From Bacteroidales bacterium (lineage in GTDB: Bacteria > Bacteroidota > Bacteroidia > Bacteroidales > AUK083): a DNA stretch of 63,976 nucleotides. Under the pieces are notes generated by a model that made no database searches, was not told where the DNA came from, and saw only the letters and a program-made list of their open reading frames with translations. Positions 8,602 to 30,345 of the stretch are shown here, piece by piece. Position 1 is the first letter of the stretch. Every line of letters begins with the position of its first letter. Position numbers and translations under genes: made by a program. The stretch is taken from NCBI GenBank assembly GCA_021158345.1, contig JAGGUV010000118.1, positions 1 to 63,976 of the forward strand. Direction: 5' to 3'.

Positions 8602-10158
8602 TTAAAAGTTTACACCAAAAGTAAAGTTGACCATAATTCTGGAAAATCCTTTGCTAGCACGAATCATATCAACATTAGTATTAATAAAAATACTATCAAA
8701 ATATTTATTTAAAGATCTTTCATAAGAAAACTTTAATCCCGGAGCAAAATATGAATCAGTCAGATATTCAAAATCAGGAATTAATAATTTATCCACGATA
8801 AAATTCGTTTTTTCAAAGTTTTGTTTTCCTGACAGATTTGTTTTGTATTTGCATCCTGCTGAAATAGAAAAAATATTTTTTTTCAAATAAAATGATTTGT
8901 CTAAATAAAAAGACAATAATAAATTTTCATAGTTTTGAATTTGACTTGGGAGATAATATTTTTCTTCAAAATTATAATAATTTACAGCAAATTTAAGACC
9001 ATAATTCTTATGATAGTTATTTTTCAATTTAATAAAATCATACATCAATCTCGCATTTATGTGAGTAGAACCATATTTTTCTTCCCTTGCATACGTAATC
9101 CAATGCTCAAGATTTGTTTCTCCAACCTGTTCAAGTCTTTGAATAATCTCAGTTCCCAGATATGTATGGATATTGGCATTTGCAGTAATTGCATGAATTG
9201 TTAGTTTATTTTTGATAGTCGTATGATTGTATATATCAAGTAGAATACCATCTAATTCAGAATCTGATTTACATACGGACCAGGAAGCATTACTAGCTTT
9301 TCTACCATCTTTAACTGCTTCATTTGAAAATAATATTTTAGCACCAAATAAACTATTAAAATTACCTGATTTATAATTTATTTGACTATCGAAACCATAA
9401 CCATTCCTATCATAAAGACGTGCAAAACTGCTTGCTCTATGAAATGTAAACATTCCAGGACCATGAATTTGAAAAAGTGTTATGTATTCATTTTCCTTAA
9501 TTATTTTAACACTAATGTCTTCGTTATAATATTCATAAATAAAATTTAAACCAAAATGGAATTTGTCTATAGAGTATAGTAGACCCGGAGTTATAGAAAA
9601 GTTAAGCACCTTATTTTGTGGACGAGGATCACGATCTTGCGAAGATAAACCAACATTGTATGCAACTGCCCCACCTAAAACTAATTTTCGGTTTAACGGA
9701 ACAGAAAGTCCACCTTTTACTGTAAAAAATTCACGATCACATTTATCACCTCCAATAGTATCAATCATAGTGTATGGGGTATCTCTAAACGGATTATTAA
9801 CACAAGAGTAATCTAAATTTTTCTCAAAACTTTTATCATATCTAAAACTACCGTAAAGACTTACTTTTTTCAATTTTGAATACGATTCTGTAAAAAATTG
9901 ATAATGAATTAAATTATCTCCCTGTTGAACTCTTTTATAATCTCCATCTTCAAAAAAAAGTCCTAAATTAATTGTAGCAGGCATAATTCCATCAATTTTA
10001 CTCAACCCTGCAGGGTTTGATGAGCTAATCCACGGATTATTTATGTGTAATAATTGAAAAGAGCTTAAAGAAACTCTTTTCAATGAGTCGGGCTTTGCTG
10101 CCATACAAGCTATCATTTGAACTGATAACAATAATGTAAAAAATATCTTTTTATTCAT
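8602..10158 (-). CDS. Outer-membrane beta-barrel protein (possibly the DUF6850 family)
   Basis: I chose the start at ATG 10158 (MNKKIFFTLLLSVQMIACMA signal peptide). It overlaps the upstream stop in ATGAATAA. The C-terminus is ...FTFGVNF. The longer tracked ORF (to 10311) would run 160 nt into the upstream gene. Confidence 0.65.
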   Translation of the reverse strand: MNKKIFFTLLLSVQMIACMAAKPDSLKRVSLSSFQLLHINNPWISSSNPAGLSKIDGIMPATINLGLFFEDGDYKRVQQGDNLIHYQFFTESYSKLKKVSLYGSFRYDKSFEKNLDYSCVNNPFRDTPYTMIDTIGGDKCDREFFTVKGGLSVPLNRKLVLGGAVAYNVGLSSQDRDPRPQNKVLNFSITPGLLYSIDKFHFGLNFIYEYYNEDISVKIIKENEYITLFQIHGPGMFTFHRASSFARLYDRNGYGFDSQINYKSGNFNSLFGAKILFSNEAVKDGRKASNASWSVCKSDSELDGILLDIYNHTTIKNKLTIHAITANANIHTYLGTEIIQRLEQVGETNLEHWITYAREEKYGSTHINARLMYDFIKLKNNYHKNYGLKFAVNYYNFEEKYYLPSQIQNYENLLLSFYLDKSFYLKKNIFSISAGCKYKTNLSGKQNFEKTNFIVDKLLIPDFEYLTDSYFAPGLKFSYERSLNKYFDSIFINTNVDMIRASKGFSRIMVNFTFGVNF

Positions 10159-22217: not shown

Positions 22218-24044
22218 TTATTCTTCTACACGCAGATTATCAATAATAAACATTTGTCGTTCGGGAGTGTTTTTACCCATATAAAACGACAGCATCTCGT
22301 TAAGAGTAGAATCTTTTTTCAATATCACAGGTTCAAGGCGAATCGAAGGGCCAATAAAATGTTTAAACTCATCAGGAGAAATCTCTCCTAAACCTTTAAA
22401 CCTTGTAATCTCTATATTATTTTTCAACTTTTTTATAGCTTCTTCTTTTTCCTTTTCAGAATAACAATAATAAGTTTCTTTTTTATTTCTAACTCTGAAC
22501 AAAGGTGTTTGCAAAATGTATAAATGACCTGATTTCACAAGGTCGGGGTAAAACTGAAGGAAAAATGTCATAAGCAATAAACGGATATGCATACCGTCAA
22601 CATCAGCATCAGTAGCAATAACAACATTATTATATCTTAACTTATCAACACCTTCTTCAATATTTAAAGCAGACTGTAAAAGATTAAATTCTTCATTTTG
22701 ATAAACAATTTTTTTACCAATGCCATAAGAATTCAAAGGTTTACCTTTCAGACTAAAAACAGCCTGAGTGTTAACATCTCTTGATTTAGTAATTGAGCCG
22801 CTGGCAGAATCGCCCTCAGTAATAAACAAAGTTGTCTCTAAACGTCTATCATCTTTCGATTGATAATGCACTCTGCAATCACGTAACTTTTTATTATGAA
22901 GGTTGGCTTTTTTAATACTCTCTCTAGCAAGTTTTTTAATACCTGCCATTTCTTTGCGCTCTTTGGCAGATTGTTGGATTTTCTTTAAAAGTATTTCAGC
23001 AGTTTCAGGATTAATATGCAGGTAATTATCAAGATTCCGTTTAACTATATCGTTAATGTAATTCCTGATAGTCATACCATCTGGTTCAACATACTGAGAG
23101 CCTAATTTTGTCTTTGTCTGTGATTCAAAAACAGGTTCCACCACTTTGATACTTATTGCAGCAACAATAGAAGAACGAACATCAGAAGGCTCAAAATCTT
23201 TTTTATAAAAATCTCTTATAGTCTTAACAATAGCTTCACGAAAAGCAGCCTGATGAATACCCCCCTGTGTAGTATGCTGACCATTTACAAATGAGTAGTA
23301 TTCTTCGCCGTAAAGTTTTTTACTGTGAGTAAAAGCAAATTCAAAATCAGATTCCTTGATATGTATAATAGGATATAATCCTGAACCATTAATAGTATTA
23401 CTTAAAAGGTCAAGCAATCCGTTTTTAGCATAAAATTTCTCCCCATTAAGAAATATTTTCAGACCATTATTAAGATATACATAATTCCAGAGCATTTTTT
23501 CAACATATTCCATAATAAAATGGAAATTGCCAAAAAGCTCATTATCAGGCATAAATTTAATAATTGTACCATTTTTTAAAGTTGTATCCTCAATATTATG
23601 GTCATTTAAAATTTCTCCCTTTTCAAACTCAATAATTTTAGTTTTGCCATCTCTTACACTCTGAGCCCAAAAATACGAAGCTAATGCATTAACAGCCTTT
23701 GCTCCTACTCCGTTTAACCCTACAGCTTTTTTAAAGACTTTTGAATCGTATTTGGCGCCTGTGTTTATCTTCGACATACAATCAAGAAGCTTAGTAAGCG
23801 GGATGCCTCTGCCATAATCGCGTATGCTTACAAGATTATTTTCAATATTTACTTCAATAGTATTTCCAAAGCCCATAACATACTCATCAATTGAGTTATC
23901 AATAATCTCTTTTATAAGCACATAAATACCATCATCATACGAAGCTCCATCGCCAAGCTTACCAATATACATCCCCGGCCTCTTTCTTATGTGTTGTCGC
24001 CAATCAAGCGATTTTATACTATCTTCTGTATATTGTTCTTCCAT
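22218..24044 (-). CDS. parE: DNA topoisomerase IV subunit B (GyrB/ParE family)
   Basis: GHKL ATPase motifs ([23 protein letters not shown]), Toprim motifs ([23 protein letters not shown]). The 608-aa length fits ParE rather than GyrB. Confidence 0.85.
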
Positions 24045-24184: not shown

Positions 24185-24330
24185 GCGGCAAAATCGGGCT
24201 ATACGCTTGTAGCTGTATCATTAGTGCTGTGTTTTTGTAGGCAGTGCGTGGGCTTACTCCGATCGCCTCCGCCTGCCAACACAAAACATCAGCACTAATT
24301 TCTACAGGCTATCGCTCCTATCCCTGCCGC
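24185..24330. ncRNA. Candidate structured RNA or DNA hairpin of unknown class (GC-rich ~150-nt imperfect hairpin)
   Basis: Nested complementary blocks: gcggca(24185-90)/tgccgc(24325-30), tgtag(24208-12)/ctaca(24302-06), attagtgctg(24220-29)/cagcactaat(24290-99), tgtttt.gt/acaaaaca, ggcag(24240-44)/ctgcc(24273-77), gcg/cgc. Local GC is far above the surrounding intergenic DNA. Confidence 0.3.
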
Positions 24331-24490
24331 ATAACACCATAATATTTTTTCGCTGTTGAAAAAATCCTGCATACTTCTAAAATCTGAAGAATTTTAATGA
24401 AAATTTTAAAGATTTCTACTAATTAACTTTTAAGTTTTGTACTGACATTAATTTTATGTTTATACTCTCGTTTTATCACTTAAACCGTTA

Positions 24491-25300
24491 TTACTTATAC
24501 ACATTGTTAGGCACAGTAGTTAAATCCAATTCTGTTCTATATTCTACACTCGGTTCCTTTAATAAGTGCATTTCTAATTGTTTAGGTTGTCTAAATCCCT
24601 GTAATTTATTCCTGTATTTGTTAAATATTATTTCGTTTTCAATTTCAAGTTTTCTGTTTTTACTAATTTCAAGATATTCCTCCTCAACATCAATTCCAAG
24701 GAATTTTCTTTCTAATAGATTTGCAGCAATACCAGTTGTACTACTTCCAGTAAACGGATCTAAAGTCCAAGCACCTTGTTTTGTTGAAGCTAAAATAATC
24801 CTCGCTAATACCGAAAGCGGCTTTTGTGTTGGATGTTTGCCACAAGATTTTTCCCATTTTGCAATAGCTGGCAATGACCAAACATCTTTCATCTGTTTCC
24901 CATCATTTATTTCTTTCATTAATTCATAATTGAAGTAATGTGGAACTTTGGCATTCTTTCTTGCCCAAATAATTTGTTCGGTTGAATGAGTAAAATAACG
25001 GCAAGAAAAATTTGGTGGTGGATTTGTTTTTTGCCAAGTGATAATGTTTAATATTTTAAAGTCAAGTTCCGTTAAAATTTGCCCAATACTAAAAATATTG
25101 TGCATTGTTCCACTAATCCAAATAGTGGCATCTTTTTTCATTTTGCCACGAACAAGTTTTAACCAGTTACGGTTAAACTCATTTATAAACTCAAAACCTT
25201 TTGATTTATCCCATTTGCCTTTATTAACACTTGTGATTTTACCGTTTTTTATGGTCAACCCATCATTCGATAAAAAATAAGGTGGGTCGGCAAAAACCAT
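24491..25300 (-). CDS. DpnA-like beta-class N6-adenine (N4/N6 family) DNA methyltransferase, apparently N-terminally truncated
   Basis: The ORF begins MVFADPPYFLSNDG (motif IV right at the start). Also ITWQKTNPPPNFSCRYFTHSTEQIIWARK, GKHPTQKP and motif I LDPFTGSSTTG. Homologous-looking codons continue upstream in frame (TTQFDFKFD) but are closed by a TGA with no alternative start. Confidence 0.75.
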   Translation of the reverse strand: MVFADPPYFLSNDGLTIKNGKITSVNKGKWDKSKGFEFINEFNRNWLKLVRGKMKKDATIWISGTMHNIFSIGQILTELDFKILNIITWQKTNPPPNFSCRYFTHSTEQIIWARKNAKVPHYFNYELMKEINDGKQMKDVWSLPAIAKWEKSCGKHPTQKPLSVLARIILASTKQGAWTLDPFTGSSTTGIAANLLERKFLGIDVEEEYLEISKNRKLEIENEIIFNKYRNKLQGFRQPKQLEMHLLKEPSVEYRTELDLTTVPNNVYK

Positions 25301-25337
25301 ATCAAATTTAAAGTCGAATTGTGTGGTATGAGCTCAT

Positions 25338-25760
25338 TTATCCAAAATAAAAATCACAAAGGGTTTCCAACACAATACGTTTTAAGTTTTTATTAACGCC
25401 TAATTCCTCTATATATTTACTATTATCAACCAGTATTTGTGAAGCTCCGGCTTCAATTGCAATTAATAAGGCTTTATCTTTTTTGACGCCCAATGAAATT
25501 AGCCTATTCATTAACACTACTCTTGCATCATTTTCATCTAAATCGTTTCTTATAGATAAACAATACTCGTACAATTCTATATCTATTTTGTCAATTATTT
25601 CGCAGACTTCATTTTCAGGCAAATTATTGTTTCGAATATAACCTTTTATTTTTGTATCCAAGTGAACTTCAAAAGGTTCTTTAATATCCAACCCCCAGAA
25701 TAAAATAGTTCCTCCTCTAATTTTATAAAAATTATTTTCTTCTGAAAATCTATCATTCAT
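25338..25760 (-). CDS. Hypothetical 140-aa protein inside the R-M island
   Basis: Its ATG overlaps the stop of the 57-aa ORF (ATGAATGA). No recognisable motif. Confidence 0.55.
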   Translation of the reverse strand: MNDRFSEENNFYKIRGGTILFWGLDIKEPFEVHLDTKIKGYIRNNNLPENEVCEIIDKIDIELYEYCLSIRNDLDENDARVVLMNRLISLGVKKDKALLIAIEAGASQILVDNSKYIEELGVNKNLKRIVLETLCDFYFG

Positions 25761-25926
25761 AACTAATTATCTTTATTTCTTTATCCATAAAATTATCACT
25801 ATTTAAAACGATTTCTTCATTATCATACAAATATTTAGCTTTTTCGATAGCTTTCTTTTCACTATCTGCTTTCAAAACAAGTGATTTTGATAAAATTTCC
25901 GTTATTTCTATTTTAATTTTTTTCAT
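25753..25926 (-). CDS. Untracked 57-aa ORF, DpnD/PcfM-like small protein (tentative)
   Basis: ATG at 25926-25924 lies inside the last codons of the endonuclease gene, and TGA at 25755-25753 overlaps the next ATG. Translation: MKKIKIEITEILSKSLVLKADSEKKAIEKAKYLYDNEEIVLNSDNFMDKEIKIISYE. It is below the 60-aa cutoff of the ORF track. The pattern (..I.ITE......V.A.SE..A......Y..EEIVL...DF) resembles DpnD/PcfM-like proteins as I recall them. Confidence 0.5.
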   Translation of the reverse strand: MKKIKIEITEILSKSLVLKADSEKKAIEKAKYLYDNEEIVLNSDNFMDKEIKIISYE

Positions 25927-26695
25927 AATTTACCTTTTTATATTTTCCTCGTCCAATAAATTCTACCAAACCATTATCTCTCATAATTTGTAATTGTTGT
26001 CTTATTTTATCTTTGATAAAATTATTTTTTGGATATTTTTTTTTCAACCTGTCTTCAAATTTATATACATCTTTTAAATTAAATTCATTTTTAGGGATAT
26101 TATCAATACATTTCATAACATCTAAAATCCATCCTTTTCCCTCTCCTTTTTTCTTTTTTATAAAAGAAACCTTATTCCAACTATTTAATACTTTGGTTTT
26201 AGGTAATATTTTAGTTCTCTTTATGAAATAAATTCTACCGTTTTCAGGTATTTCAGTAAGATTAATATTACATCCTATCCAACCAGCTCTTCGTGCATTA
26301 CTGGATAAAGGTTTTCTTTTTTCAATAATATTTGGCAAAAAAAAGAATTTTGGAATGATTAAAAAATTAGTTACTTCCCATTTAACTTTATCGTAAGTCA
26401 AAAAAAAGAAATTTGGATTATTCTCAGAAAGAATTCTATCAATCATAGTTGAATATGAACCATCAACAATTTTATTACTTATCTTAATGCTGTTTTTACT
26501 TTTTAATTCAAATTCTTCTCTACAATTTTTACATAAAAAATCTGCAACAGGTTTATTATTCTCAAATTCAAACAATGGATTGCCACAGTTTGGACAGAAA
26601 CCATTATTTTTTACCCAATTTTCTGTTATTACTCTAGCTATTTGAGATTTGCTAGAATAATTTTCTGCTATTTTTAAATCAAATTTCAAATCCAT
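25913..26695 (-). CDS. DpnI-family ('Dam-replacing' family) PD-(D/E)XK restriction endonuclease with a Cys4 motif and a C-terminal winged-helix domain
   Basis: CPNCG...CKNC (Cys4). Catalytic-type D52...E63-L-K65 (PVADFLCKNCREEFELKSK). Also NPNFFFLTY and ARRAGWIGCNI. C-terminal IRQQLQIMRDNGLVEFIGRGKYKKV. Length (260 aa) and motif spacing match my recollection of DpnI (about 254 aa, D53/E64/K66). Confidence 0.75.
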   Translation of the reverse strand: MDLKFDLKIAENYSSKSQIARVITENWVKNNGFCPNCGNPLFEFENNKPVADFLCKNCREEFELKSKNSIKISNKIVDGSYSTMIDRILSENNPNFFFLTYDKVKWEVTNFLIIPKFFFLPNIIEKRKPLSSNARRAGWIGCNINLTEIPENGRIYFIKRTKILPKTKVLNSWNKVSFIKKKKGEGKGWILDVMKCIDNIPKNEFNLKDVYKFEDRLKKKYPKNNFIKDKIRQQLQIMRDNGLVEFIGRGKYKKVNYEKN

Positions 26696-27554
26696 TAGGC
26701 ACCATTCGGTTAATATTTCTTCTTGCTAAGACCCTTTTAATGTCAAATTTATTATACAACTCATCAAAGAAGTTGTCGTTAGGATTTTTCCCTTTAACGT
26801 CAGAGTTACTTAATATCCATTGATAGCCTAAGATATCTATTTTCTCACAAAATTTGGCAAGTCTTATTTGTTCGCTATCATCAAATTCATCTTTTGCATA
26901 AGAATTAAAACTTGATGTTTCACTCAATGGCTTGTATGGTGGGTCGAAATAAAACAGAGTGTTGTTTTCTGCATATTCCATGGTCGCTTCAAAATCTCCG
27001 TTCAAAATAGTTACTTTTTGTAAAACATCACTAACAGCTCTTAAATTATCTTCATCGCAAATCATGGGTGTTTTATAACTGCCTATTGGTACATTAAATT
27101 CATTTTTACGATTTACTCGATACAAACCATTAAAACAAGTTCTGTTAAGAAAGATAAACAATGCTGTTTGGCTAGTTTTATCTGAATTTCGATTATTAAA
27201 TTGTTTTCTTTTTGAGTAATAGTATTCTTTTTTTTCTTCAAGTTTATCTTTTAATGAATGATATTCTTTTTTCCATTTTTTTAAAATAGATATTAATTCT
27301 TCTACATTTTCTTTTATTGTTTGATATGAGTTGGTTAAATCTGTATTAATGTCGTTTATAATTGCGTGTTTAATATTTGGATATTTTTGTAAAATCCAAA
27401 AAAGAATAGCACCACCACCAACAAACGGTTCAATGTAGGTAAATTGAGTTTGTTTCATGTAACTTGGAATTGCATTATCAATTTCAGTCAATAATTGAGC
27501 TTTTCCACCAGCCCATTTAACAAAAGGTTTTGCTATTTTATTCATTTGTTTCAT
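26679..27554 (-). CDS. Dam-family (D12 class, alpha-type, DpnM-like) N6-adenine DNA methyltransferase
   Basis: KWAGGKAQLL, motif I EPFVGGGAILF, NRTCFNGLYRVN, motif IV FYFDPPY. The last 17 nt overlap the start of the DpnI-like gene, and the C-terminal tail (...RRNINRMVPNGFEI) looks shorter than typical Dam. Confidence 0.85.
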   Translation of the reverse strand: MKQMNKIAKPFVKWAGGKAQLLTEIDNAIPSYMKQTQFTYIEPFVGGGAILFWILQKYPNIKHAIINDINTDLTNSYQTIKENVEELISILKKWKKEYHSLKDKLEEKKEYYYSKRKQFNNRNSDKTSQTALFIFLNRTCFNGLYRVNRKNEFNVPIGSYKTPMICDEDNLRAVSDVLQKVTILNGDFEATMEYAENNTLFYFDPPYKPLSETSSFNSYAKDEFDDSEQIRLAKFCEKIDILGYQWILSNSDVKGKNPNDNFFDELYNKFDIKRVLARRNINRMVPNGFEI

Positions 27555-27625
27555 ATTTTCAATTTTCGTTTCTTTCTATTGTGCCTAACTATTGAGAAAG
27601 AAAGTTGTTGATAAGGATATTTTTT

Positions 27626-28495
27626 TTATTTAGCCAATATCCAAATATCTTTATATTTTGGACCGAGTTTTTGTTTTGCTTTTTTAGATTTTGACAATGA
27701 AGGAAAGTCAGAAAGTGAAAGTCTGTATCTGTTTTTTTGTTGTATAATTTTAGCTTTATGAAAGCCTCTTGCTTTATATTTCTTTAAATCTCTTTGTGAA
27801 TCTTTTAAATTAGTATAACTACCAAATATCAAATAATATCTTTTAGAAATTTTACTTTTCAATGCCTCTTTTCTATCCTTATATTTTGAATTGACAATAA
27901 AATTATCTGAATTACAAACCTTAAGTTTTTTTTCAACATCAATTTCTTCACCAAACCAAACAACTGCATAATTTTGAGAAATGGCAACACCTACTGCTTT
28001 CCAATCTTTATCAACCCACTTTCCTGAATTTATAATAACACTATTCGATGCTTGAGTGCTAATCCATGTATTAAAAACATCTTTATATTGAAATTCAGCA
28101 CTACTGTAAAAAGTAATTTCAAAACCAAACCCATCATAATTTGTTAATTCAGCAGGTTTATTCATCATACATAATTGACTTTTCATATCATTAGTATAAC
28201 AACACGGAGTCCATTTATCGCTGTCAGACCACGAGTGCATATTACAATTATCAGAAAAAACAAAATTCGATTGCAAATCATTAACATGCATTTTTGAAAC
28301 ATAGCACAATGATTTTGATAAAGGAATTTCATTAAGATTATGTTCTTTTCTGTATTTGTTTATCAGATTGTATAATTTTAACTCTGATTTTGAAATACAA
28401 AAATTTTTCGGTATTTTATTAGATGCTGTAACAGTTTCAAAATTTGCCAGCAATAATCCGATAAATAAAAATAAAATAACTTTAAAGCTCTTCAT
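27626..28495 (-). CDS. Secreted CAP/SCP (YkwD-like) domain protein with a C-terminal SPOR peptidoglycan-binding domain
   Basis: Signal peptide. LINKYRKEHNLNEIPLSKSLCYVSKMHVNDL matches the CAP pattern. C-terminal YYLIFGSYTNLKDSQRDLKKYKARGFHKAKIIQQKNRYRLSL is SPOR-like. Confidence 0.6.
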   Translation of the reverse strand: MKSFKVILFLFIGLLLANFETVTASNKIPKNFCISKSELKLYNLINKYRKEHNLNEIPLSKSLCYVSKMHVNDLQSNFVFSDNCNMHSWSDSDKWTPCCYTNDMKSQLCMMNKPAELTNYDGFGFEITFYSSAEFQYKDVFNTWISTQASNSVIINSGKWVDKDWKAVGVAISQNYAVVWFGEEIDVEKKLKVCNSDNFIVNSKYKDRKEALKSKISKRYYLIFGSYTNLKDSQRDLKKYKARGFHKAKIIQQKNRYRLSLSDFPSLSKSKKAKQKLGPKYKDIWILAK

Positions 28496-28680
28496 TTATA
28501 ATTCTATTTTTTATAATCATTTCAAAAATACAAAAAAAACAGCAACAACAAAACAATTTAATAAATATGAAACTTTTTTTTATGGTATACGTAATTTAAA
28601 TTAAGGAGACTTAAGACAACAAAACAGAAATAAAACAAAATGATTTCTTTCTTAATCTTTAAAAAATAAAACTTGATAAA

Positions 28681-29091
28681 ATGAAAAAATATTTTTTTAC
28701 AATTTTATTATTAGCAGTTGTTCTTTTCTGTTCAGCACAAGGAAAACATTCATTAATTACACAAAAAGTAATAAAAGATTCAATTTCATCTGATAGTTGT
28801 AAATACGAAATAATAATTACTGAACCCGGTTTTAATTCGTGGTTTGAAACAAACAGAAAACCAAAATGGTTTTATTCAAAATCATATTTAAAATATTGGG
28901 ACTATATTTATACAGTAAACTGGAATATGAAAAATATTTCAGAAAGAGGTAATATCAACAATCCGTTTTATTATTATATAGATTATAATTACAATATAGA
29001 TTACGGCAAAGAAGTATATTACAAACTATATTATTATTTTAAATATATTGAGTATAAATACCATAAAAAGATTTATCCATATAAAAGATAA
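28681..29091 (+). CDS. Small secreted Y/N/K-rich protein, function unknown
   Basis: Signal peptide MKKYFFTILLLAVVLFCSAQ. No confident family assignment. Confidence 0.5.
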   Translation: MKKYFFTILLLAVVLFCSAQGKHSLITQKVIKDSISSDSCKYEIIITEPGFNSWFETNRKPKWFYSKSYLKYWDYIYTVNWNMKNISERGNINNPFYYYIDYNYNIDYGKEVYYKLYYYFKYIEYKYHKKIYPYKR

Positions 29092-29130
29092 ATAAAAAAA
29101 CTGAGGTTTAAAATTCTATATTTTTAATTA

Positions 29131-30345
29131 TTACTCCATTTCCTGCAACCATTTTTCAGATAATAATCCGAGACTAACAGCAAGGTCAATAATTTTCTGA
29201 TTACGTTTCACAACAGGTGGGTCAATCATTTTTGTTCCCAAAGATACAACGCCCAAACCTTTTTTTTCAGCCTCATAAAAAGCTTTAACAATTTTTTTAG
29301 CTTTTTCTATTTGATTTTCTTCTGGAGCAAAACTTTCAATAATAACAGGTATCTGACGAGGATGAATACACCCCATACCTTCAAACCCAAGGCTTTTCGA
29401 CATTTTAACATTATTTTTTAAACCTTCCATATCAGCAACATCAGAAAACACAGAATCAATGGGTTGAATTTTAGCAGCATGACAAGCATTAACAAGTCTG
29501 GTTCTTGCATAAATAGATTCTATACCTTCTTTAGTTCTTTGAACACCTATGTCGGCAGTAAAATCTTCAAGACCAATAGCTAAAGCAACAACATTTTTAG
29601 ATGACGTTGCTATTTCAAAAGCTTTTTCAACACCTAAAGCACTTTCAATAATAGGCATATAAAAAATCCGGGAATCAATATTATATTCTTTTTTAATTTT
29701 ATTAACCTCAACATCAATTTTTCTCACATAATCAGCACTCTCGCATTTTGGCAATAATAATAAATTAACATTAAAAGGAATAACATATTTCAAATCGTCA
29801 ATACCTCTTTGTCCCTGATTAATTCGAACCATTCGCTCAGCACCGTAAAAATTAATCCTACAAAGTGCATTCCTAACTAATAAACGTGCTTCTTCTTTTT
29901 TAGATAAAGCAACAGAATCTTCAAGGTCAAGAATTATACCGTTAGGTTTATGCAAACCCGCATTAATCATCATACTTGGTGTATTGCCGGGTAAATATAA
30001 CCTTGAAAAACGATATAAATCTCTTTTTGTACTATATTTATTCTCATCAATAATATCAAACAGATATTGTTTGTCAGTATCAATTAATTGTTTAACAGCA
30101 GCTTCGATACGAGCAGCTATAACAAAATCAAGTGCACCAAAATCTTCAATGATTAATTTTGCATTTTCTATATCAAAATATTTTAATACTTTATTTGCTA
30201 AATTTATAATTGAATCAGCAAATAATGTTTTTACTTTACTTTGTAATTGTATTTCTATTCCTCCTTGATTTGTAATTTCAAGACTAAGAAAACAATCAGA
30301 ACGAACCTTTTTACCTTTATTTCCTGCTATTGCTATTTTTCCCAT
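29131..30345 (-). CDS. Citrate lyase acyl-carrier (CitD-like) fused to citrate lyase beta subunit / citryl-CoA lyase (CitE, HpcH/HpaI family)
   Basis: The N-terminal ~95 aa match the CitD layout (IAIAGNKGKKVRSD...IEDFGALDFVIAARIEAAV). The remainder is CitE-like (RLYLPGNTPSMM, GIILDLEDSV, PIIESALGVEKAFEIA, GLEDFTADIG, GFEGMGCIHPRQI). Confidence 0.75.
   Translation of the reverse strand: MGKIAIAGNKGKKVRSDCFLSLEITNQGGIEIQLQSKVKTLFADSIINLANKVLKYFDIENAKLIIEDFGALDFVIAARIEAAVKQLIDTDKQYLFDIIDENKYSTKRDLYRFSRLYLPGNTPSMMINAGLHKPNGIILDLEDSVALSKKEEARLLVRNALCRINFYGAERMVRINQGQRGIDDLKYVIPFNVNLLLLPKCESADYVRKIDVEVNKIKKEYNIDSRIFYMPIIESALGVEKAFEIATSSKNVVALAIGLEDFTADIGVQRTKEGIESIYARTRLVNACHAAKIQPIDSVFSDVADMEGLKNNVKMSKSLGFEGMGCIHPRQIPVIIESFAPEENQIEKAKKIVKAFYEAEKKGLGVVSLGTKMIDPPVVKRNQKIIDLAVSLGLLSEKWLQEME

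Follow-up and report, generated by a model that had tools for sequence, protein, structure and literature searches.

How can a gene for a Dam-family methylase stand in one operon with a gene for DpnI, a methyl-directed nuclease that would be expected to make the combination suicidal? The question is raised by an island of five tightly packed open reading frames (ORFs), all on the minus strand, in contig JAGGUV010000118.1 of a Bacteroidales bacterium (GCA_021158345.1), whose 63,976 nucleotides constitute the window analyzed here. Read along its own strand, the island encodes M1, a Dam/DpnM-type GATC methyltransferase (MTase); a DpnI homolog; a DpnD-like small protein; a 140-residue protein designated orf140; and M2, a beta-class MTase. 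We consider, with a probability of roughly 0.8, that this GATC restriction locus is polymorphic and that the island represents its methyl-directed, DpnI-type allele. Comparison with related loci shows that the operon was originally DpnII/MboI-like, with the gene order M1-R-M2 in which R is a GATC nuclease, and that a cassette of ~1.4 kb carrying dpnC (the gene of DpnI), dpnD, and orf140 took the place of the R gene. We infer that both MTases are catalytically dead relics, and the paradox of a Dam enzyme beside DpnI would be resolved because both methylases are truncated. No GATC methylation would then arise from this locus, and DpnI would be expressed from the upstream signals of the old operon, with the M1 relic, which overlaps the start of DpnI, being read through on the way. 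Incoming Gm6ATC DNA, for example that of phages or plasmids from Dam+ hosts or from siblings with a DpnII-type allele, would be cut, while DpnD and orf140 would represent conserved accessories of the cassette.

The clipped methylases and the DpnI homolog

M1 (27554..26679, minus strand, 291 amino acids) matches PF02086 (E = 8e-66) and TIGR00571 (E = 1e-85) and retains the S-adenosylmethionine (AdoMet) motif EPFVGGGA and the catalytic FYFDPPY, in agreement with its preliminary description as a Dam/DpnM-like enzyme with KWAGGK, EPFVGGGA, and FYFDPPY. Its KWAGGK and NRTCFNGLYRVNRKNEFNVPIG align to KWAGGK and NRYGYNGLCRYNLRGEFNVPFG of EcoDam, a region that we take to be the GATC-contact region from the DNA-contacting residues described in the literature on the EcoDam structure. 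Homology to intact relatives, however, stops at codon 282 (ARRNIN), and the last nine residues, RMVPNGFEI, are junction sequence overlapping the start of DpnI; the overlap of the two ORFs is 17 nt, as had been noted and as the coordinates bear out. The closest Dam relatives fall into two length classes: those of 303-327 residues continue after ARRNIN with SNPNKRG.LTELLITN, whereas those of 286-293 residues, to which M1 belongs, diverge right after ARRNIN into short unrelated tails such as RMVPNGFEI, SLVA, FKMVA, and PSSCKKKY, and an alignment confirms that M1 is without the tail of its full-length relatives. The match of M1 to TIGR00571 accordingly covers only profile positions 2-252 of 267, whereas that of an intact allele covers 2-267. 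Judged by the Pfam Dam model, whose match ends at residue 281, the domain appears complete in M1. In an AlphaFold model of a full-length Dam (predicted template modeling score 0.79), the missing LTELLIT forms the last strand (residues 288-294), following a strand at residues 268-274. In class-I methyltransferase folds this last strand lies inside the central sheet, and M1 therefore does not contain the complete Dam fold with its C-terminal beta-hairpin strand (KRG.LTELLITN).

M2 (24491..25321, minus strand) is clipped at its other end. The protein is of the beta class, similar to DpnA and the second methylase of the MboI system, and counts 269 amino acids from its first ATG at 25300; the PF01555 match (E = 3e-56) starts at residue 1 of the ORF. 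Homology to intact relatives begins at about residue 26 (QFDFKFD), and the first ATG, which opens MVFADPPY, corresponds to residue 32 of the intact protein, so that the earlier observation of a DpnA-like enzyme beginning right at DPPY was accurate. An in-frame stop lies just upstream of the homologous part, and M2 has lost its native start together with about 25-31 N-terminal residues, that is, the segment M..PYFKS.DK.F.LL.GD..ELLP (also given as M..PYFKS.DK.F.LL.GD..ELLPQFDFKFDMVFADPPY) conserved in all intact relatives. Whatever the frame, the 64-kb window was found to contain no sequence coding for the lost Dam tail or for the M2 N terminus. Compared with many intact relatives, both MTases are genuinely truncated at their odd ends, a point that had been missed before. 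The ancestral methylases were GATC enzymes, judging from the Dam/DpnM contact region and from their DpnII-, MutH-, and Sau3AI-type partners. Of the first option raised in the preliminary description, the notion that the MTase is crippled, its tail being replaced by the overlap, stands on comparative evidence that extends to M2, while the notion of a different specificity does not, given that the GATC-contact region is kept and that the partners of the intact allele are GATC nucleases, either MutH/Sau3AI-like or of the DpnII family.

In contrast to the MTases, the 260-residue product of 26695..25913 (minus strand) is complete, and its assignment to the DpnI family, with a Cys4 site, a PD-(D/E)XK core, and a winged helix, is upheld by profile searches and by the alignment with R.DpnI. 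The N-terminal PD-(D/E)XK domain with its Cys4 site matches PF06044 over positions 1-182 of 183 (E = 2e-81), the C-terminal winged helix matches PF17726 over positions 2-70 of 70 (E = 2e-34), and the PADLOC model of methyl-directed type II restriction endonucleases, mREase_II, is matched at E = 2e-110. The R.DpnI structure 4esj aligns end to end (residues 1-254, E = 1e-86) with ~55% identity. In R.DpnI, Asp53/Glu64/Lys66 are catalytic, Asn48/Arg126/Arg135 read the guanine, and Leu129/Arg135/Trp138/Gly140 form the methyl cleft (PMC4117772). D52, E63, and K65 of the window protein align to the catalytic triad, C34/C37/C55/C58 (CPNC...CKNC) align to the R.DpnI cysteines, RKPLSSNARRAGWIG aligns to RKPLAPTANRAGWIG, ENNKPVAD aligns to ENNRPVAD, and N48, R126, and R135 for guanine readout as well as L129, R135, W138, and G140 of the methyl cleft are all identical. 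The ratio of nonsynonymous to synonymous substitution rates (dN/dS) against homologs is 0.13-0.26. Because all the named residues of R.DpnI are identical and dN/dS is low, the protein is predicted to cleave in a Gm6ATC-dependent manner.

Exchange at the nuclease slot

Evidence for an exchange comes from a contig of a different sample, L007, which aligns to window positions 29218..26704 with 98.1% nucleotide identity over 2.5 kb and is unrelated beyond. The DUF6146 neighbor protein is 100% identical in the two, and the Dam of L007 is a full-length protein of 319 residues, 99% identical to that of the window, followed by a 203-residue MutH/Sau3AI-like nuclease (catalytic domain of Sau3AI, 4pxg, E = 5e-11; MutH, E = 1e-8; PF02976) and then by an intact M2 start, MIKPYFKSEDKNFTLLQGDV. 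Three further samples, L008 and L176 among them, carry the DpnI allele with the junction of the window; an apparently split DpnI in L177 proved to be a scaffold gap of Ns and not a frameshift. The same species is therefore polymorphic at this locus, one allele being a methylating GATC restriction-modification (R-M) system and the other being of the DpnI type. The left breakpoint, at 26704..26710 on the minus strand, is marked both by the end of the L007 alignment and by the step in identity against another DpnI locus, L001, and lies in the loop that precedes the final beta-strand of M1, while the right junction is ~25 codons into M2.

The cassette has a history different from that of its surroundings. 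Nucleotide identity between the window and L001 rises from ~83% to 97% right at the junction, and the two DpnI proteins are 95% identical with a synonymous divergence (dS) of 0.087, in contrast to dS values of 1.5 for Dam and 1.7 for M2. The DpnI-linked Dams are scattered across the Dam tree, and for most of them the nearest relative is an intact Dam, at 90-99% identity in 5 of 13 cases (window-L007, 99%; L075-L071, 97%; L089-L091, 95%; L041-L046, 93%). The cassette thus moves between diverged MTase frames. Conventional nuclease cassettes, too, appear to swap between diverged MTase arms, judging from the MutH-like nucleases of L009:6935-7546 and L007:2585-3196, which are 98% identical next to Dams that are only 88% identical.

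How general this arrangement is was examined from both sides. A Dam-seeded survey with one genome per species comprised 80 loci with 62-85% identity to the window Dam, in which the slot between Dam and M2 was occupied by a DpnII-family nuclease (PF04556, E = 3e-96) in 34 loci, a 177-residue putative PD-(D/E)XK nuclease in either orientation in 14, DpnI in 13, MutH-like nucleases in several, and DUF6996/6997 proteins in two. Of the 73 non-DpnI loci that could be scored, 71 have the KRG.L.ELLITN tail, which forms strand beta7, versus none of the 13 DpnI loci (Fisher p = 1.2e-13); the two exceptions are L065, which is cut by the contig end, and L053, whose slot is taken by a different nuclease-like protein. 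Apart from L053, every non-DpnI locus has an M2 beginning at residue 1; in the DpnI loci M2 begins at residues 6-64, with loss of DPPY in four cases and a frameshift in three. A second survey was seeded with DpnI, and therefore was unbiased with respect to Dam; it comprised 80 metagenomic loci, of which 41 extend 900 nt or more upstream. In none of these 41 does DpnI have a neighboring Dam that retains the last strand; instead, 13 show long Dam relics, nine show short ones of 25-165 codons, and 19 show none at all. Dam alignments reaching residues 295-311 in L115, L139, and L157 seemed to be exceptions at first sight, but they are junction tails with no beta7 motif. The junction point varies, after NIN, ININ, ANPE(N/K), or, in a distant Dam lineage with 40% identity, NRGEV, and all variants fall in the loop before the last Dam strand. 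The preliminary description had asked how often Dam- and DpnI-family genes are adjacent elsewhere, and the answer from both surveys is that an intact Dam never is (0/13 and 0/41 loci).

Several of the surveyed loci show peculiarities of their own. The Dam...M2 frame accommodates at least five unrelated nuclease cassettes (L013-L092), beside which recur accessory ORFs of ~87, 175, and 184 residues with no Pfam match. L053 (2239-3727) contains no DpnI, yet both of its MTases are truncated, and its slot holds a 247-residue protein with a weak PADLOC match to type II restriction endonucleases (E = 1e-9), possibly another methyl-directed nuclease. An ORF of 67 residues is common to L053 and the DpnI loci L072, L075, and L089, where it lies between DpnI and M2, and these four loci also share an oppositely oriented PF05869 phage-type "Dam" N6-adenine MTase of 160-180 residues with an NPPY motif. 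In L081, L082, L091, and L092, a full-length Dam ORF runs on into a C-terminal extension of ~100 residues with a DGQHR motif, which suggests a fused ParB/sulfiredoxin-like domain.

A second type of junction is also found, in which an ~85-nt Flavo-1 RNA motif (RF01705), antisense to the operon, occupies the interval from the end of the truncated Dam to the start of DpnI. Copies are located at L041:5861-5934, L052:5876-5962, L057:5876-5952, L072:5870-5948, L075:5870-5952, L089:5870-5955 and 8847-8947, and L116:3912-3990, the second copy of L089 being inverted and placed after the M2 relic. Scores are 50-59 bits in most, and 33.5 bits, below the gathering score of 42, in L041. No Flavo-1 was seen in the five non-DpnI loci examined. 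In the window, a tentative Flavo-1-like hairpin lies 3' of the M2 relic (24188..24332, minus strand), with 23.5 bits against the gathering score of 42, an E value of 0.011 in a 451-nt search, and an 85-nt insertion. Flavo-1 may represent a repetitive element or mark a site of recombination.

The surroundings of the island are in keeping with the description given before, ORF positions and profile matches showing the five genes to be flanked on one side by a ParE/GyrB-type gene (22218-24044) and on the other by a SPOR/CAP-domain gene (27626-28495). The statement that GATC is plainly not avoided, on the other hand, is contradicted by the count over the whole window (1-63976), where GATC occurs 56 times against 145 expected (observed/expected ratio, 0.39) and ranks second most depleted of the sixteen 4-bp palindromes, which is consistent with long-standing GATC-targeting restriction in the lineage. 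CTAG (0.23) and GGCC (0.40) are likewise under-represented, the latter hinting at a GGCC system elsewhere in the genome. Near the window start, the peptide DTTCQCECDPPFISG is encoded twice on the plus strand (1980-1991 and 2634-2645), 654 nt apart and in the same frame, which points to a large protein in which a cysteine-rich domain is repeated.

Accessory proteins and alternative explanations

The 57-residue ORF at 25926..25753 (minus strand) is DpnD-like (PF14207, E = 5e-12) and overlaps both of its neighbors, as had been noticed, by 14 nt with DpnI and 8 nt with orf140; DpnD follows DpnI in most of the related loci. orf140 (25760..25338, minus strand, 140 amino acids) had been described as an unknown protein; no Pfam, NCBIfam, or PADLOC match was obtained, and a fold comparison with the PDB gave no match below E = 0.25. 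Its AlphaFold model, with a predicted local distance difference test score of 90.5, consists of a small alpha/beta domain and a helical bundle. A word-indexed search gave only three homologs, and an exhaustive profile search was needed to collect 56 matches, which split cleanly into those to residues 3-77 and those to residues 77-139. By this pattern orf140 is a fusion of two small-protein families of ~70 residues each, which are encoded elsewhere by genes of their own, as fusions with DpnD, or in reversed order. dN/dS is 0.26-0.49 for orf140 and 0.18-0.49 for DpnD and orf140 taken together. At a guess, the two proteins might regulate DpnI or aid its establishment in a previously methylated cell. 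The idea that orf140 supplies the lost Dam strand in trans, raised by the resemblance of its C terminus NKNLKRIVLETLCDFYFG to NPNKRGVLTELLITNF, was dropped, as an alignment of 23 members keeps only ..FY.G and no ELLITN-like motif.

Several observations weigh against the view that the island is a DpnI-type allele with dead methylases. The inactivity of the relics is itself an inference, and another GATC MTase may be encoded beyond the 64 kb seen. The M1 relic is an uninterrupted ORF of 282 codons with all motifs in 13 of 13 genome loci, and M2 of the window keeps ADPPYF and the FxGxG-type AdoMet motif LDPFTGSSTTG; in several other DpnI loci M2 is short of only about 12-15 residues. In one locus, L171 (132-1930), the only such case seen, a full-length M2-type methylase directly follows DpnI, although its LL.GD motif reads LFNND (GD to ND) and the region upstream of DpnI is lost at the contig end. 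Because the L007 contig does not reach the parE side, allelism is seen on the SPOR-side flank only. Nor do the DpnI-linked Dams carry an excess of substitutions at otherwise invariant sites in a leave-one-out comparison (4 in 13 sequences versus 21 in 74, p = 0.34), in which an approximately threefold excess obtained from a biased count, and with it the case for relaxed constraint, vanished. Relic ORFs that are still open, without a substitution excess and with low dN/dS, can be understood because the recombination is recent. These counts and ratios are uninformative either way on the present function of the relics, and a retained function would fit them as well.

One possibility, doubtful as it is, goes beyond the exchange of alleles: DpnI-DpnD-orf140 might be a specialized selfish element with GATC R-M operons of different phyla as its targets. 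It would enter by recombination in the conserved MTase genes and turn a methyl-sensitive system that methylates into a methyl-directed one that does not. The stereotyped junction would kill M1 by loss of its last strand alone, and DpnD, the orf140 domains, and perhaps the M1 relic or Flavo-1 would restrain DpnI until GATC methylation had been diluted. If true, this would answer the long-open question of the role of DpnD.

Another possibility, which we regard as unlikely, is that M1 is dead but kept for a non-catalytic role, as a promoter, a translated leader, a device for translational coupling, or a partner or antagonist that binds GATC and modulates DpnI or assists its establishment. A long open relic ending within a few codons of the DpnI start, as found in every one of the 13 genome loci and in 13 of the 41 metagenomic ones, would suit such a role, as would the 17-nt overlap in the window. 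No separate DpnI promoter stands out either, although the sigma-70 promoter and terminator scan behind this observation, with 21 sites against 20.8 expected, carries no information for this organism. The relic is short or absent in 28 of 41 DpnI loci, however, and a long relic is therefore dispensable, while the intactness of the long ones is explained by recent recombination into functional genes.

It is quite improbable that the truncated M1, M2, or both are still active GATC methylases, with DpnI held in check by DpnD and orf140 in a conditional module for suicide, abortive infection, or addiction. The M1 relic, intact as an ORF with all its motifs and under constraint that is not detectably relaxed, would fit such a module, and so would DpnD and orf140, which are conserved, translationally coupled, and under purifying selection and have no known function. 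The segment lost from M1 is nevertheless a strand at the core of the class-I MTase sheet; it is missing from all DpnI-linked Dams, whose several junctions differ slightly in position, with an intact Dam never adjacent; Dam relics decay to 25-165 codons or to nothing; and M2 relics are frameshifted or without DPPY in many loci. In addition, the DpnI cassette of Streptococcus pneumoniae contains dpnD without any MTase. A suicidal module restrained by the small proteins, the third option of the preliminary description, is hence unsupported and, with no intact Dam beside DpnI in either survey, unneeded. Hardly credible is the second option of that description, a DpnI homolog with changed specificity, methyl-sensitive or for another site, in a conventional R-M pair with working methylases, since, even though the adjacency of the genes might suggest it and specificity is not readable with certainty from sequence, the protein resembles R.DpnI from end to end with all catalytic, guanine-reading, and methyl-pocket residues conserved, and MTase truncation tracks DpnI.

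Comparison with known restriction switches

Under the reading of the island as a DpnI-type allele, Dam beside DpnI has a concrete and testable account, with the methylases as relics, and some practical consequences follow. With their complete Pfam domain, such relics will be labeled "DNA adenine methylase" by automated annotation, and methylome predictions for these genomes would then wrongly expect G6mATC. DpnD and the two orf140 domains offer handles on how a methyl-directed nuclease establishes itself in a previously methylated cell. The single methylase-X-methylase frame can be looked on as a docking site that admits five or more nuclease cassettes unrelated to one another.

The window M1 and M2 are 83-99% identical to the MTases of intact relatives of the MboI/DpnII/LlaDCHI type, namely, L010, L015, the 34 loci with a PF04556 nuclease, and L007, which are two-MTase GATC systems of the same kind; unlike these, the window has no cognate nuclease, and both of its MTases are truncated. 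A close parallel is the polymorphism of the DpnI, DpnII, and DpnIII cassettes in S. pneumoniae, studied by Lacks and colleagues and since reviewed (PMC3812788); in function, the island would correspond to the DpnI half of such a polymorphism. As in that species, mutually exclusive alleles occupy one chromosomal locus within a species, one allele comprising a nuclease and GATC methylases of the Dam/DpnM and DpnA types and the other dpnC followed by dpnD, and exchange proceeds via homologous recombination in shared flanks. The ancestral order, however, is the MboI-like M1-R-M2 in the present case and dpnM-dpnA-dpnB in S. pneumoniae, and the gene order is thus better explained by replacement of the R gene than, as previously proposed, by a dpnC-dpnD insertion into a dpnM-dpnA-dpnB operon. 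Only R is replaced here, so that clipped MTase relics remain as shared flanks, or homology arms, and there is the extra accessory gene orf140. The frame, moreover, also hosts MutH/Sau3AI-like, DpnII-family, 177-residue, and DUF6996/6997 nucleases, and occurs in low-GC genomes of the Bacteroidota and Ignavibacteriota type and beyond.

In Neisseria meningitidis MC58, 053442, Z2491, and alpha710, drg is inserted within dam, which is thereby truncated (PMC4269198), and the judgment that any of the three options considered before would be unusual was therefore overstated. The Neisseria system (NmeBII/Drg, leuS/dam locus) is a mechanistic parallel to the present one in having a DpnI-family Gm6ATC nuclease at the dam locus, with dam+ and drg+ strains coexisting (PMC4269198), but there a solitary dam is disrupted and here an R-M operon, and no second MTase, dpnD/orf140 accessories, or recurrent junction before the last beta-strand have been reported for drg. 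Our literature search found no description of the Bacteroidota-type architecture. A restriction-type switch of the DpnI/DpnII kind is accordingly already known from pneumococcus and Neisseria, and what differs here is the replacement of R only, the two clipped relics, the stereotyped left junction, and the extra accessory, an architecture in which this switch of restriction polarity recurs in many genomes of Bacteroidota, Ignavibacteriota, and others.

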